Part shown: piece by piece, positions 7,623 to 32,759 of the stretch
Position numbering within the stretch: the stretch's first letter is position 1
Layout of the letters: each line of letters opens with the position of its first letter
Source of the DNA: Candidatus Hydrogenedentota bacterium
Lineage (GTDB): Bacteria > Hydrogenedentota > Hydrogenedentia > Hydrogenedentales > SLHB01
Direction: 5' to 3'
Length of the DNA: 64,000 nt
Assembly: GCA_963745075.1 (NCBI GenBank)
Contig: CAVUWV010000021.1
Location: forward strand, 32,001-96,000
Made by a program: the position numbers and the translations under genes
The notes under the pieces: model-generated
Told to the model about the DNA's origin: nothing
The model's database searches: none
What the model saw: only the letters and a program-made list of their open reading frames with translations

Positions 7623-8430
7623 ATGCCACGGGAAAAGAAACAGGACGAAGGTGGAGGCGGTGCTCCCGCCTGGATGGTCACCTACGGAGACCTGATGGGG
7701 CTCCTCCTGACCTTTTTCATTCTGCTGATTTCCTTTTCCACGCTGGACCAGAAGAAGATTTCGCAGGCGATTATTTCCGTCCAGGGGGCCTTCGGCGTCT
7801 TGCCACAGAACATGACCGTCGCGCAGATCATGCAGAACATGGCCCGGGCCCAGGCCCGTACTCCGCGGAGCATCGAACGGGCCGCGCGCGAATTCCGCAG
7901 CCGGCTGCAACTGCTGGGTTTGGAAGACAAGATCGAAATTAAGTACGATGGGTCCGGCGGGTTGGAGATCAATCTTCCGAGCGGGTTGTTGTTCGATTTG
8001 GGAAGTGCCGAACTGAGGCCGGAGGCCTATGAGGTCTTGAACGGGTTGTCGTCATCGTTAGCCGACATTCCCGGTAAGCGTATCGAGATCCGGGGCCACA
8101 CGGACAATCTGCCCTTGAGCAATACGAACCGCTACGCAGGACAACTACGACCTCAGTTACCACCGCGCCAAGAACGTCATGCTACAGATGACCGGACCGG
8201 GCGGGATCCCGCGTGAAGACACCGAGGTCATCGCGTGTGGACCTTCCCAACCCGTCGGCGACAACAGCACGGAAGAAGGTCGCCAAATGAATCGGCGCGT
8301 GCAGATTCGCGTGCGCGGCGATTTTTCAGACGAGACGAAAGATCAGATACAGGCGATTGTGGACGGTGCCGAGCCGAACGCCCCGGGAGCGTTCGCGCCC
8401 GGAATCGTCCCCGATCAGGCGGGTGATTAA
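7623..8430 (+). CDS. motB: Flagellar stator B subunit (MotB/PomB-like; +1 frameshift near 8137)
   Basis: WMVTYGDLMGLLLTFFILL TM segment; OmpA-like domain GHTDN...NRRVQI split across two frames. Confidence 0.92.
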
Positions 8431-11196: not shown

Positions 11197-11241
11197 CTGA
11201 AAGGACACAGAAAAAGTTAAAATGCTCTAAAGAGAAGTGTG

Positions 11242-11327
11242 GCGGATGTAGCGCAGGCGTCCCCGCCTGCATTCTTTGGGGCGCTGTCGCAAGGATATGC
11301 AGGCGGGGACGCCTGCGCTACATCCGC
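11242..11327. repeat. GTAG-type REP doublet (31-bp perfect IR)
   Basis: GCGGATGTAGCGCAGGCGTCCCCGCCTGCAT and its exact reverse complement at 11297-11327. The same core occurs at 43119-43213. Confidence 0.9.
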
Positions 11328-11732
11328 GACGCCTTGCCGATATCCCACTTCTGAAACACACTCTGAGTCTGGGGGCGGTGTCCCCGCACCCCTCCGTTCT
11401 TTCTGACGAGGGGGGGTGCCGGGGGTGGACGCGTGTTCGGTGCTGTCCGTCATGGGAGGTGTTCTCCTTGTAAGCATCGAACAAGTAAAGGTTTGCACGG
11501 GAATCGGGCCGGAGGTTGGCGGCCGTGGGGTTGGGGGTGCACCCATTTCTATTTTTGACGATTCAAGGGGGGGTGCACTCCGCGAATTTCGGTCCCCGCG
11601 GTCGCGAGGATAACGGGCGCGTTGGGTGTGGCTGGTCATGGGCGGAGTCTTCCTTATCAATATAGGCCGGGGCGTTGCAGTGGGAATTGGGCTGGAGGCT
11701 TCGTACAGTTTCCCATAAAAGAGAGAACAATG

Positions 11733-11899
11733 TGGAGTGCGGCCACGCCTTGGCGTGGCTGCTTTTCCGGAGCAGGTTTGCCTGCGGCGCATTCTGATGC
11801 TGTACGGAGTGTCGCCTCAAACCGCAATGACTTCGTGAAATAGGGTCTTCTGCAATTGACGTAGGAAAAGCAGCCACGCCAAGGCGTGGCCGCACTCCA
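11733..11899. repeat. REP/REPIN-like doublet (36-bp perfect IR)
   Basis: TGGAGTGCGGCCACGCCTTGGCGTGGCTGCTTTTCC (11733-11768) and its reverse complement (11864-11899). Confidence 0.9.
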
Positions 11900-11951
11900 A
11901 ATATTCTTTCTGTGGGAGGCCGGCGCTGGAGTTTCTACGTGAACCTGTTCT

Positions 11952-12034
11952 GCCCTTTCAGGGCGATCAGGGCTGGTGGCGACGGGTTCCCAGGGCGTTG
12001 CCCTGGGCTGTCCTGTTTCACCCCTTCGGGGTGA
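11952..12034. repeat. Three-hairpin REP-like unit
   Basis: GCCCTTTCAGGGC, CCCAGGGCGTTGCCCTGGG and TCACCCCTTCGGGGTGA in series. Confidence 0.7.
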
Positions 12035-12132
12035 CGGGGGCAACGAAATAACTTCTATTCAGGAAAACCGCAGCCCTCGTATCGCGGGTAGGAAAACCCG
12101 CCCTCCGCGTGGACGAGGACCGTTTGTAGCGC

Positions 12133-13453: not shown

Positions 13454-15958
13454 TTAAAACGACTCGTCTTCGAGGATGCGGATACCGGTGATGCGCGATA
13501 GTTTGAAAACCCGGGCCCCGCCCAGGCGATGGCAGAACCCGCTCAGCGACGGAATCGCGCCCACGGTGTCAATGGATACCGGGTTTACCCGACGGACCGT
13601 CGGTTTCGGGCTCCACGTGGATTGATACTGAATCAGGATTGGACGTCGGCGATGTATGGCATCGTCAATAATCTCGCCGACGATCCGCGGGGAGTAGGAC
13701 GGCAGGTCGACCGTCTCTTCTTCGGCAGTCTCGTCCGCGCGTTTTTCGGCGGATCGTTCGTCCGGCTCGTCGGCATCGGTCCGCGATTCCATCCACGGGC
13801 CGACCCATTGCTCGGGCGGGCCGTCGTCGAGGACCACGCCATTCTTGCCGACCGGCATCCCGAACGATTTGAGCGCGCGCTTGATCGCAGTGAGACCGCC
13901 CTTTCGGACGACCAGGGTGTAGAGTCCGAGCCGCCCTTCCACATGCTCGGCAACGTCGGGCAACTCAAGCACCGCATCACACGCTTCGGGATCGTCGAAC
14001 CGGACCAGCGTGGCGGTCTGGGCGGAGGGCAGCACCATGTCGCCGTTCCAAGCGCGTAACGCGGCCCGGAAACGCGCCGCGAGCGCCCCCTCGACCAGCG
14101 TTTCCAGTTGTGCGGCTTGCAAACCCCAATCGATATCGCGCCGAAGGGTCTTCTTGCTCAGCGTGAATTCGAGATCGCCCGTTGCCGTCGTGCGAACCTC
14201 GCCCAATTCCTCCAGACGCCGTCGAACGAACAGGTCGGCTTTGGGCCAAGGCACGCGGAGCGCAAGCCCCTCGCCCTGCTGCGCGCAGGGTTCCGATGCG
14301 TTCCGGTAGTTGATCTGATGGTTTACACCGGGCTTGGTACCGTTCAAGACCAGGCAAAACCGCCCGCCCAGATGGCGCAGCGAGGCGTCGTCATCCGCCG
14401 CCGTCACGGCCTCGAGTTCGGACAAGAACTCCAGCAGTTTGCACTGTGGATGAATCGCAACGGCCGCAACCTTCCGATCCCAGGTGCTGAATTGATCGCG
14501 CACGTTGGTCGGAAGCGGCCGGCTGGAATGGGCCTCGAGGATCGCGCTAAACTCGTCCGTCGAAACGCCCGACCGCACCCCGCGATACACGCTTTCCTGG
14601 GTCAGACGATAGGTGCTGACCGGCCCGCCGCGAACCCGCTCGCAGAACACGTCCAACTTGCGCCGCAAGTCCGCAGGGCAGCGGTCCAGGTACGCGATCA
14701 CCTCGAAATCCGGCTGGATCACGAGGGCGTCGCGTGCAATGTCGTTGGCCTCGGCAGGGGCTGGGCCGACTCCCAAGGCGTAGCGGCCCAGATCGGAGAG
14801 CCGGAAGAGGCGGCCTTCATCCGCGAGGTCCACCATCCCAAAATTCGCAAACAGGCTTTGAATCATCCAAGAGAACAGGCGCTTTTCATGATTTTGCCAG
14901 GCGCGGTCCCGCCATGCGGGGGAAGCGTCGAGGACATTTGCCGCGATCGCCCGCCACCGCTCGTGGAGAAACAGGGCATTCTCATCGATGCGCCGGATCG
15001 CGTTGACGAGCCCGTCCAACGTGAACCACACTCCGGCGGGCTGTTCCGCCAACACGCGAGCCACGAGGAGCTTGTGATACCGCCGCCGGAGACTCCCGGC
15101 CGGTAAGCGAGACTCGATGGCGCTGTAGGCCTGCGGAAAGAACAGTTGGAGATCGGGGAGTTCGTCCGATTCGAGATATCCACGGAAGAGGCCACGTACC
15201 CGGTCCGCCCGCGGCCTTTGCGCCCACGCTTCGGCGCGGTCCGTCGTGGCCAGGCGGTTCGATTTTGTCGTGACGCACCCCAATTGGCGTGCGATCATGA
15301 GCGCAAATTTGAGGGATTCGGTACTGACATTGGCGTCGGACGCCAGTTCACGGGCGCGGGTGCCGTCGCTCTTGTGCAGCTCGCCGGAAGCCGTGACTCG
15401 TGGTTCCAAGACCTCCACCACCCGCAGGGTCTCCAGAAACGCGGTGGTGGCCCCGTCTTTGCGGGTCACGCCTTCGTCCGGGACCGGGCCGGAGAACGGA
15501 GGAACGGTATGGCCGACTGCCGGGGGTTCGGGCACATGGGGTTGCAACGTTTCCGACACGGTCAATACGTAGGCGCTGGAAGCTAGTTGCTCTTGACGGG
15601 TCAATTGTTTGAATGTGAACGCACCCGACCGGTCCAAAGGGGGAACCAGCACGAGTCCCAGCACCGCGAGGGTCTCGAGGGAAGGGGCAGGCGCAGCCCC
15701 GATCAGCCCCCGGATGCCCAATATGTCGGCGGAAGTGATCCCGTCGTTCGTGGCTACCAAATAAAGCATGCGGAGTGCGGGCGGTTCCAGGTCGTTTATA
15801 ACCCCCTTCATATGAAGGGGATCACCGAGGATCTTTTCGAGTGCCTTGATGCGGCTGGCTTTATTTGCCGCGCCGAGCCGCCATCGGTCGCACATCGTCC
15901 CCAAGGCGTCATTGGTGTAGCCTCGCAGGCATTCTTTGATGCTGTAGCCGGTTGTCAA
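13454..15958 (-). CDS. Helicase-associated (Helicase_C_3, Tfb2/p52-like) protein with C-terminal WYL domain
   Basis: LVIQPDFEVIAY...YRLTQESVYRG...PLPTNVRDQFSTW domain; WYL-like AIHRRRPILIQY...RRVNP...GFCHRLGGARVFKLSRI. Likely TTG start at 15958 overlapping the upstream stop, with a GAGGG RBS. Confidence 0.8.
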   Translation of the reverse strand: MTTGYSIKECLRGYTNDALGTMCDRWRLGAANKASRIKALEKILGDPLHMKGVINDLEPPALRMLYLVATNDGITSADILGIRGLIGAAPAPSLETLAVLGLVLVPPLDRSGAFTFKQLTRQEQLASSAYVLTVSETLQPHVPEPPAVGHTVPPFSGPVPDEGVTRKDGATTAFLETLRVVEVLEPRVTASGELHKSDGTRARELASDANVSTESLKFALMIARQLGCVTTKSNRLATTDRAEAWAQRPRADRVRGLFRGYLESDELPDLQLFFPQAYSAIESRLPAGSLRRRYHKLLVARVLAEQPAGVWFTLDGLVNAIRRIDENALFLHERWRAIAANVLDASPAWRDRAWQNHEKRLFSWMIQSLFANFGMVDLADEGRLFRLSDLGRYALGVGPAPAEANDIARDALVIQPDFEVIAYLDRCPADLRRKLDVFCERVRGGPVSTYRLTQESVYRGVRSGVSTDEFSAILEAHSSRPLPTNVRDQFSTWDRKVAAVAIHPQCKLLEFLSELEAVTAADDDASLRHLGGRFCLVLNGTKPGVNHQINYRNASEPCAQQGEGLALRVPWPKADLFVRRRLEELGEVRTTATGDLEFTLSKKTLRRDIDWGLQAAQLETLVEGALAARFRAALRAWNGDMVLPSAQTATLVRFDDPEACDAVLELPDVAEHVEGRLGLYTLVVRKGGLTAIKRALKSFGMPVGKNGVVLDDGPPEQWVGPWMESRTDADEPDERSAEKRADETAEEETVDLPSYSPRIVGEIIDDAIHRRRPILIQYQSTWSPKPTVRRVNPVSIDTVGAIPSLSGFCHRLGGARVFKLSRITGIRILEDESF

Positions 15959-16161
15959 TCGTGAACCCTCGGCAAATGCCCCAGAGATTGCAGTCGGCGC
16001 ACGATATCGGGTACGGCTTGAGGCTGGACCGCGATGCACAATTCCGAAAGCCGTTCCCCCAGAAACGGTTGCAGGATCGCGTCGCTCTCGATTTCCGTCA
16101 GAACGAGCGGATCCGTGACCTCGATCACGGCAACCCCGTCATGCAACTTGGGACCCTTCAT
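15955..16161 (-). CDS. 68-aa hypothetical protein, p8/Tfb5-like pattern
   Basis: GGAG RBS. MKGPKLHDGVAVIEVTDPLVL...RLSELCIAVQPQAVPDIVRRLQSLGHLPRVHD resembles an internal module of the downstream protein and is translationally coupled to it. Confidence 0.7.
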   Translation of the reverse strand: MKGPKLHDGVAVIEVTDPLVLTEIESDAILQPFLGERLSELCIAVQPQAVPDIVRRLQSLGHLPRVHD

Positions 16162-16302
16162 CGTATTCTCCCAGGTAGAGGCAAAAATACAACCGCCTAG
16201 TGTAGCAAATGGGGGGGCGAAAAGAAAAATCGGCGTCTGGCGTGCAAGTTCCGGATACAGCGGCATGGGGAATTCCCTGGATGAAGGGGCAATGTGACCG
16301 CG

Positions 16303-16339
16303 TGAAAACGAATGGGCCGCCCAGCTCGGGGCGGCCCAC
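16303..16339 (-). terminator. Intrinsic terminator after the EF-G-like gene
   Basis: TGGGCCGCCC/GGGCGGCCCA stem followed by TTCGTTTT on the minus strand. Confidence 0.65.
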
Positions 16340-31550: not shown

Positions 31551-32759
31551 CTACAGCTCCTCGTCCATGAGGTCGACTTCTTGCTGAAGCTTGTCGCGAT
31601 TACGCCATTCGGTTCCACGCCAGAAGTCGAGCGCGTTCTCCATCGGCGGTTTCATGTCGCGCAAATCGACCACGGTGGGCGACACGAAGATGAGAAGATG
31701 GCTGTTCAGAATGTCGTTCTTCCGTCCACGGAACGGGATGCCCAACACCGGTAGCCGCCCGATGATCGGCACGCGCTTTTCCGTCTTCCGGATCACCCGG
31801 CTGGACAACCCGCCGATGACCAGCGTTTGCGAATTCGGGACCAGCACCGACCCCGTCTGTTTTCGGCTGGAAAACACCGGCACCTGCAACCCCTGGATGG
31901 GGGTGTCGCGCAAACGGTCGCTTACTTCCAAGTTCGTGATGTCGATTCGGACGATGTTGTCGGGCCGGACTACGGGTTTCAGGTTGATATTTACGCCCAG
32001 TTGACGCCAATTGATCTTCAAAATGGGAACGCCGTTCTTATACTCGACCCCCTGATACGGAACGTCTTCACCGGCATTAATTTGTGCCGTCTGCTGGTCG
32101 ATGACCAGCAATTGCGGTTTCGAAATCAGGTCGGAATCCGACTTCGTCTCGATGGCCCGCAGAATACCGTCAATGGTCCCGCGATCGTCGTCGATGATAC
32201 TGTACGTGAGACCGGCGCCGCGTCGCGTGTTGAGTTGGAACTCTCCGGGACGATTCGGATCGTTGACCAACGAGTTCCCCGGCGTCCACGGGGTGTCGGA
32301 CTCGGGAGTCAGCCGCACGTTATCCGGGTAAGGGCTTCCGTCCGGCGCGGGCAACGTCGTCTGAAACGCCGGATCGGTGGGAACGAAGGTATCGGTCCGA
32401 ACCCGTTCCACGGATCCGCTCTGTTCGGCGCCGCGCACAAAACGGGTGTAGTTGAGATTGGAGCCAATCTCGCGGGCGCCGTCTTCATCGGTCTGACTGA
32501 TCCACACCTGAATCTGGACCTGACTGATCGGGGTCGGAGGCGGTGGCACGGCGGGCGCTTCCGCGGCCGGAGCCTCCGGGGCCGCGGCGGGCGCTTCGGC
32601 AGCCGGGGCCGCGGCGGGCGCTTCGGCAGCCGGAGCCGCGGCGGGCGCCGCTTCTGCCGGTGGCGGTGCTGGCGCTGCCGGTGCTGGATCTTGCGCGTAG
32701 ACCGTACCGCACGTCAACACCAACGCCGCGAGGAGACAGTTCTTAACTACGCGTACCAT
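31551..32759 (-). CDS. Short secretin (C-domain only) with Ala/Pro linker
   Basis: Signal peptide, APAAAPAAE linker, QVQIQV...ISKPQLLV...GEDVPY...TLVIGGL...VPIIGRLPVLGIPFR...LLIFVSPTVV. Confidence 0.88.
   Translation of the reverse strand: MVRVVKNCLLAALVLTCGTVYAQDPAPAAPAPPPAEAAPAAAPAAEAPAAAPAAEAPAAAPEAPAAEAPAVPPPPTPISQVQIQVWISQTDEDGAREIGSNLNYTRFVRGAEQSGSVERVRTDTFVPTDPAFQTTLPAPDGSPYPDNVRLTPESDTPWTPGNSLVNDPNRPGEFQLNTRRGAGLTYSIIDDDRGTIDGILRAIETKSDSDLISKPQLLVIDQQTAQINAGEDVPYQGVEYKNGVPILKINWRQLGVNINLKPVVRPDNIVRIDITNLEVSDRLRDTPIQGLQVPVFSSRKQTGSVLVPNSQTLVIGGLSSRVIRKTEKRVPIIGRLPVLGIPFRGRKNDILNSHLLIFVSPTVVDLRDMKPPMENALDFWRGTEWRNRDKLQQEVDLMDEEL
32581..32650 (-). repeat. 27-nt tandem repeat encoding the APAAAPAAE linker
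   Basis: Plus-strand unit GCCGCGGCGGGCGCTTCGGCAGCCGG(G/A) repeated about 2.5 times. Confidence 0.8.

Follow-up and report, generated by a model that had tools for sequence, protein, structure and literature searches.

A Hydrogenedentota gene pair related to the p52 and p8 subunits of TFIIH, with a duplicated clutch unit and a WYL domain

Two overlapping genes on the minus strand of a contig from a Candidatus Hydrogenedentota bacterium (assembly GCA_963745075.1, contig CAVUWV010000021.1) encode proteins related in fold and sequence to p52 (Tfb2) and p8 (Tfb5) of TFIIH. In human TFIIH, which serves both transcription and DNA repair, these two subunits grip the DNA motor XPB and adjust it. The window analysed is the whole stretch from position 32,001 to 96,000 of that contig (64,000 nt); coordinates given without a contig refer to it, and the two genes, their parts, and the promoter- and terminator-like sites described are on its minus strand. 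The small gene (15955..16161) has an ATG start and encodes 68 amino acids (aa); the large gene (13454..15958) has a TTG start and encodes 834 aa. The TTG start of the large open reading frame (ORF) lies over the TGA stop of the small one in a 4-nt overlap, TTGA, just as an earlier sequence-only reading of the window had described. The large protein is p52/Tfb2-like, with two units that each consist of a clutch and a C-terminal domain, and it ends in a WYL domain. The small protein is a stand-alone domain of the fold family that comprises p8/Tfb5, the p52 C-terminal domain, and the DRD-like domain of XPB; the genome also encodes an XPB.

Conservation and coupling of the two genes

Conservation shows the small ORF to be a real gene. 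Homologues numbered 47, at 63–94% identity, and all those with a named organism came from Hydrogenedentota; mismatches against 29 relatives were distributed over the three codon positions as 485/215/1112, a coding pattern. The alternative of a chance frame was rejected on the same grounds. For the large gene the evidence lies in Pfam matches, a structural model, and fold matches to p52/Tfb2. Both genes were matched strongly in the same 36 of 135 genomes of the phylum, always at adjacent coordinates, so that the neighbourhood survey proposed in the sequence-only reading found the small ORF beside the large gene in 36 of 36 carriers. In each of the 30 loci inspected, this genome included, the small gene was followed directly by the large gene, whose alignment-inferred start lay at −4 in 22. 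These loci and genomes are related and do not represent independent samples. Presence at the family level was patchy, with the pair in 34 of the 53 other genomes of the family.

Relationship of the two proteins to p52 and p8

Pfam identified Helicase_C_3 at residues 412–496 of the large protein (E 2e-15) and WYL at residues 763–827 (E 5e-10). The stretch quoted as Helicase_C_3 in the sequence-only reading, L412 (about 14725) to E516 (about 14411), takes in the first of these matches, and the second bears out its statement that the protein ends in WYL. Foldseek with the large-protein model (predicted local distance difference test, pLDDT, 85) returned p52/Tfb2 as the best match (8ebt_D, E 7.7e-12), and ranks 1–19 were all chains of TFIIH-containing entries. 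Residues 148–546 aligned with p52 residues 121–456 (Z 15.1, root-mean-square deviation (rmsd) 7.2, 301 residues), an alignment spanning the winged-helix middle region, the clutch, and the C-terminal domain in p52 order; the proposed p52 likeness is thus upheld. Identity to the TFIIH counterparts in the structural alignments was 12–18%. A profile of the large family (A7) searched against PDB sequences found Tfb2 at E 3e-4 and XPB at E 0.09, as compared to E 0.75 only for Tfb2 with the single large sequence. Pfam Tfb2 (PF03849) did not match the window protein; two of 12 relatives with the same tandem arrangement matched it at E 4e-4 to 8e-4, below cut-off. We also considered the large protein as a helicase itself and rejected this, as no helicase core was present in Pfam or NCBIfam domain scans. 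Domain scans found no nuclease domain in the small or large protein.

In the N-terminal helical region (residues 1–145; 15524..15958), for which a relation to the N-terminal, p34-binding domain of p52 is at most possible, residues 1–147 were barely covered by structural alignments. Look-alikes of this region in Atlas were mostly unnamed bacterial proteins, and Atlas searches yielded unnamed clusters only. The winged-helix middle region (residues 148–400; 14759..15517) matches the p52 middle domain; 6tru_D, the N-terminal half of p52, aligned with residues 148–397 (Z 11.4, rmsd 4.0, 157 residues). Clutch 1, the Helicase_C_3 region (residues 407–497; 14468..14740), corresponds to the clutch of p52 and to the N-terminal domain of XPB. 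It superposed on the latter with Z 14.5 and rmsd 1.8 over 92 residues, in agreement with the earlier claim that this region is shared with XPB. C-terminal-like domain 1 (residues 498–546; 14321..14467) is a degenerate copy of the p8 fold in the place of the p52 C-terminal domain: the p52 alignment reaches residue 546 (p52 456), conservation is 0.48, and the small-family profile matched it at P 24%.

The second unit was missed in the sequence-only reading. Clutch 2 (residues 552–640; 14039..14305) is divergent, with the same order of strands and helices in the model. C-terminal-like domain 2 (residues 645–703; 13850..14026) resembles the small protein more than any other part of the large protein does; it matched the 99-sequence small-family profile at P 95% and E 2e-8 and the narrow small-family profile weakly (P 1%). 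Unit 2 as a whole (residues 552–703) scored P 95% against the single clutch-plus-C-terminal units found in other p52-like proteins of bacteria, and direct profile comparison of units 1 and 2 gave P 8% only. Pairwise BLAST between the small and large proteins found no match; their kinship is visible only with the 99-sequence profile.

The small protein had no Pfam match and no family from NCBIfam or PADLOC. When a profile of its close homologues was searched over 1.84 billion representatives, 121 matches were obtained, 119 of them new: 89 of at most 130 aa, a few of which are evidently fragments of longer genes, and 30 longer. Among the long matches, 18 of the 22 scanned carried Helicase_C_3 just before the matched C-terminal domain. 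The 99-sequence profile searched against PDB sequences put yeast Tfb5 at the top (E 5e-4 to 8e-4, with the following unrelated entry at 0.013). The model (pLDDT 92) gave Tfb5/p8-sized chains at Foldseek ranks 1–6 (best E 0.028), with nothing at E 0.001 or better. Compared with 48,161 chains, it matched the XPB DRD-like domain (Z 7.6) and Tfb5 (Z 6.9, rmsd 2.6, 57 residues) most closely, then p8 (Z 5.4), the N-terminus of the phage T4 UvsW helicase (PDB 1RIF and 2OCA, Z 5.4 and 5.1), and the Tfb2 C-terminal domain (Z 5.3); a Z below 8 is not decisive alone. Tfb5 and the DRD-like domain of XPB are thus tied in fold, and the sequence profile favours Tfb5 among PDB entries. The small family also matches bacterial p52-like C-termini and the XPB DRD. 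Pfam Tfb5 (PF06331) gave no match for the window protein and only two, at E 0.07 or weaker, among the 99 family members. A profile of the XPB N-terminus searched against PDB gave 14 sequences up to E 10, with neither Tfb5 nor Tfb2 among them.

These tests are modest singly; taken together, they place the small protein in the family named above. The earlier assignment of the small protein to p8 therefore stands in part: Tfb5/p8 came first in both the PDB sequence search and Foldseek, and the fold is not separable from the XPB DRD-like and p52 C-terminal domains. The small protein may be a p8 orthologue or may derive from its own duplication of the C-terminus of a bacterial p52.

The WYL domain (residues 755–834; 13457..13696) lies behind a low-confidence acidic linker. 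It has the Sm-like WYL fold (PafBC, Z 12.9, rmsd 1.9, 79 residues) and is the best-conserved region of the large protein (0.74), with the beta-1 Tyr, an Arg, and the beta4/beta5 loop Phe kept in 59 of 59 sequences. The complete set of WYL residues required in PafBC is not present, and the protein ends without a WCX domain. PADLOC WYL models match the domain, and PADLOC found no match outside it. Single-stranded DNA is bound by the WYL domains of DriD and PafBC (PMC12340889), and Mueller et al. suggested single-stranded DNA binding for helicase-linked WYL proteins (PMC6789036); nucleic-acid sensing by this WYL domain would be plausible. No WYL domain was found in the 12 tandem relatives from outside Hydrogenedentota. 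Judged from the tandem forms examined, where it occurs only in Hydrogenedentota, the fusion appears to be a lineage-specific addition.

XPB, distant relatives, and genomic setting

The sequence-only reading had noted that no XPB adjoins the pair and had placed one elsewhere in the genome, and both statements are correct. The pair is flanked in the window by an EF-G paralogue, upstream, and a ROK-family gene, and the Helicase_C_3 matches of the genome lie on contigs C1, C20, and C21. The match on C1 is XPB (C1:237840-239523), directly upstream of AddB-like and AddA-like genes, the latter so labelled from our reading of its UvrD-type start. The order XPB then AddB-like gene was seen here and in three of four other loci of the phylum (L036, L037, and L038; not L035). 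The match on C20 (C20:122402-124234), also overlooked earlier, is a plain p52-like gene of 610 aa with a single clutch and a single C-terminal domain at its end, no WYL, and no small partner nearby. Most genomes of the phylum appear to have a second Helicase_C_3 gene of this plain kind; carriers of the pair typically have three Helicase_C_3 genes and non-carriers mostly two. Helicase_C_3 was present in only one of 14 control genomes. By score, an XPB-class match was found in 34 of the 36 carriers, and XPB was not linked to the pair in any of the 11 genome neighbourhoods compared, the window included. In the most distant member of the phylum (L123:4885-9005, G001:C2), XPB overlaps a p52-like gene of 838 aa, the product of which has one clutch, a p8-fold domain, and a C-terminal extension without a Pfam match.

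A different arrangement was found in a distant, related subfamily of the small protein, for which the best 80 of 305 metagenome loci were kept. Where the flank was at least 500 nt, 61 of 63 loci had XPB as the next gene upstream of the small gene, 52 of 55 had a p52-like gene as the next one downstream, and 40 of 43 had both; the profile for the downstream gene was built from 25 of the same loci. The p52-like proteins of these loci run colinear to the window protein through units 1 and 2 (P 99.9%, 325 columns) and end without WYL, and in these operons XPB has no p52 beside it other than the tandem one. A second probe returned 15 genome loci, 14 with a small-family match, and tandem p52 lay downstream in 13 of the 14. 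XPB was directly upstream in three (two Planctomycetota and one other) of the 12 such loci with a long upstream flank; it did not adjoin in the remaining nine, was absent from the Chloroflexota-type and Poribacteria loci, and was encoded elsewhere in all 10 genomes with an unlinked pair that were searched. Two Helicase_C_3 stretches were detected in eight of 12 tandem relatives. Tandem p52 thus recurs with the small gene, without WYL, in Chloroflexota, Poribacteria, and Planctomycetota, and its linkage to XPB differs by locus; the stable unit is therefore the small gene with tandem p52. At one locus (L156:5956-8403) the small-family gene is followed by a DNA methylase gene and not by a p52-like gene. 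Some bacterial p52-like proteins (P0154, P0160, P0161, P0165, P0215, P0217, and P0224) carry an N-terminal SWIM zinc finger, others a SAP domain, and their last domain closely resembles the small protein.

An extended −10 promoter-like element (TG-n-TAnnnT; 16199..16207) lies about 46 nt upstream of the small gene. The motif occurred within 70 nt upstream in 27 of the 30 loci, as compared to a mean of 3.9 and a maximum of 11 of 30 in base-shuffled controls, so that the pair looks like its own transcription unit; this suggests a promoter of its own. A stricter two-hexamer promoter scan missed the site, and the match of that scan at 15958-15931 is at chance level. A terminator-like hairpin with an 11-pair stem and a T-rich tail (16312..16339) follows the upstream EF-G paralogue gene; three terminator-like sites in the region are what chance would give (shuffles, mean 3.5), and the hairpin evidence is weak. 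No shared operator palindrome was seen upstream of the pair. The pair is single-copy among chromosomal housekeeping neighbours (the EF-G paralogue, ROK, and flagellar genes). The intergenic region at 11200-12050, between flagellar genes and the ROK gene, contains apparent repeated elements, visible as recurring motifs in ORF translations. A MotB-like gene (7623-8430) is split by a frame change relative to the same-genus genome G106, suggesting indel errors in the assembly.

Proposed role and alternatives

The closest known system is XPB-p52-p8 of TFIIH (human XPB/GTF2H4/GTF2H5; yeast Ssl2/Tfb2/Tfb5; PDB 8EBT, 6NMI, 6TRS, 3DOM). In common with it are a winged-helix middle region followed by clutch and then C-terminal domain, a stand-alone partner of p8 fold, and an XPB with an N-terminal clutch in the same genome; unlike p52, the large protein has a duplicated clutch-plus-C-terminal unit, a fused WYL domain, and 145 N-terminal residues that found no match here. 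The class of proteins with Helicase_C_3 and WYL (PMC6789036; NCBI 'helicase-associated domain-containing protein') shares Helicase_C_3, the C-terminal WYL, and the lack of WCX, but as described in PMC6789036 its domain is treated as a helicase domain, with no link to p52, small partner, or tandem unit. The WYL regulators PafBC, DriD, BrxR, and CapW have the same Sm-like fold (Z 10–13), beta-1 Tyr, and loop Phe; here, however, WCX is absent, the triplet Tyr is replaced, the loop arginines are partly changed, and the WYL domain ends a p52-like scaffold rather than standing behind one helix-turn-helix. In archaea, Bax1 is a dedicated partner that modulates the XPB ATPase (PMC13024598), as we propose for the pair; Bax1 is a nuclease, whereas neither protein here has a nuclease domain.

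In TFIIH, the p52 clutch pairs with the XPB N-terminal domain as a pseudo-symmetric dimer (PMC6422496), which with the DRD and p8 makes a collar around the ATPase (PMC10183003); p52 activates XPB, p8 adds to this, and the pair caps DNA-driven activity (bioRxiv 10.1101/2020.08.24.264176). By analogy, it is somewhat probable that the operon encodes a bacterial version of the p52-p8 collar which works in trans on the XPB of the chromosome, and that its WYL domain is an extra, particular to this lineage, that binds nucleic acid. The small protein would pair with one of the large protein's two p8-fold domains, a clutch of the large protein would pack on the XPB N-terminal domain, and the collar would set XPB ATPase and translocase activity. 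With less assurance, the WYL domain may bind single-stranded nucleic acid and recruit or gate the complex at damaged or resected DNA. XPB co-activation and control by WYL, both put forward in the sequence-only reading, are inferences. A wider version of this proposal is possible but rather doubtful: the XPB-p52-p8 collar would be of bacterial stock, and Hydrogenedentota would have one XPB with two exchangeable p52 adaptors, one plain and one tandem with its own p8, the WYL domain gating the motor on single-stranded DNA from the AddAB-like enzyme encoded beside XPB.

Several observations weigh against a collar acting on XPB. The glutamate that p52 requires to activate XPB (Chaetomium E359; bioRxiv 10.1101/2020.08.24.264176) aligns with Q415 of the large protein, kept in 59 of 61 sequences, and the R363 position with E419, where the place of E359 was inferred from the E359/R363/Y365 spacing in that source. 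Clutch 2 could occupy or seal clutch 1. In the WYL domain, the triplet Tyr is replaced by Ser, Thr, or Ala (12 rows shown), the first loop arginine is Lys (K819) in 54 of 59 sequences, and the second is kept (R822) in 40 of 59 and is Gln in 18; both sites matter in PafBC (PMC6789036). The plain 610-aa protein is a rival partner for XPB. By score, about 120 of the 135 genomes of the phylum have an XPB-class match and only 36 have the pair; XPB therefore does not need the pair, and finding the two together within the phylum is of little weight. The wide profile detected no further stand-alone p8-like gene in the phylum. The XPB of this genome is also frameshifted near residue 45, in the N-terminal clutch. 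This is probably an assembly error, since two of eight genes compared with G106 change frame here; in G106 the XPB (92% identical) is intact and its N-terminal clutch present. Five sequencing runs were listed for the XPB locus, with small shares (0.06–0.14) and no RNA run among them. Complex prediction for large-protein residues 402–708 with XPB residues 1–170, both from G106 and with one alignment per chain, gave 0.14 and 0.00 against a mark of 0.32; the controls were not folded, and the result counts neither way.

Other explanations account for part of the evidence. Unit 2 is built like the N-terminus of XPB (P 33% to XPB, 95% to other p52-like units), and the pseudo-symmetry of the p52–XPB dimer cited above would allow unit 2 to imitate XPB, closing the collar in one chain; winged helices and WYL would then form a nucleic-acid-sensing regulator independent of XPB, with WYL in the place of the ATPase. 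The conservation of WYL and the separation of the pair from XPB, in the 11 neighbourhoods and nine of 12 distant loci, fit this reading. We nonetheless think it unlikely: XPB operons encode this tandem protein in a form without WYL, XPB was kept in all 10 tested genomes with an unlinked pair, the WYL domain has no WCX dimerisation domain after it, and no shared operator palindrome was seen upstream of the pair. Less likely again, the tandem p52-WYL protein with its own p8 may compete with plain p52 for XPB and, on single-stranded nucleic acid, remove, stall, or redirect the motor rather than activate it. Such a brake would suit the third Helicase_C_3 gene of carriers, the Gln at the activation-critical position, and the capping of DNA-stimulated XPB activity by eukaryotic p52/p8, but in XPB operons the tandem p52 is the sole p52 beside XPB, as a normal partner would be, and the conserved extended −10 with no operator suggests constitutive expression. 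A defence role was also raised in the sequence-only reading; in the form of an accessory defence or conflict module in which WYL senses with a partner other than XPB, we regard it as very improbable. Patchy presence in the family, the PADLOC WYL matches, and the methylase gene after one of 14 distant small genes speak for it; neighbourhoods and PADLOC gave no sign of a defence context, the pair being single-copy among housekeeping genes, with no effector domain and no PADLOC match outside WYL.

In 2012, p52 homologues were stated not to have been found in bacteria (PMC3353954), and in a 2026 review the function of bacterial XPB was called elusive (PMC13024598). Proteins combining Helicase_C_3 and WYL have already been described as a class (Mueller et al. 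2019, PMC6789036). We found no report of a bacterial p52 or p8 in the literature searched, which left most subscription journals and supplements outside; the class lists of PMC6789036 and the alignments of PMC6422496 could bear on this point. The module described here is homologous to p52-p8 of TFIIH yet below the Pfam Tfb2 and Tfb5 cut-offs, with one unit duplicated and WYL added. A p52 and a p8 in bacteria bear on the origin of the TFIIH translocase arm, and suggest that past studies of bacterial XPB by itself left out its regulators. With XPB they make a three-protein system open to purification and assay, and the WYL fusion offers a way to test control of the motor by single-stranded nucleic acid. 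For the role of XPB in bacteria, the pair is a testable lead.

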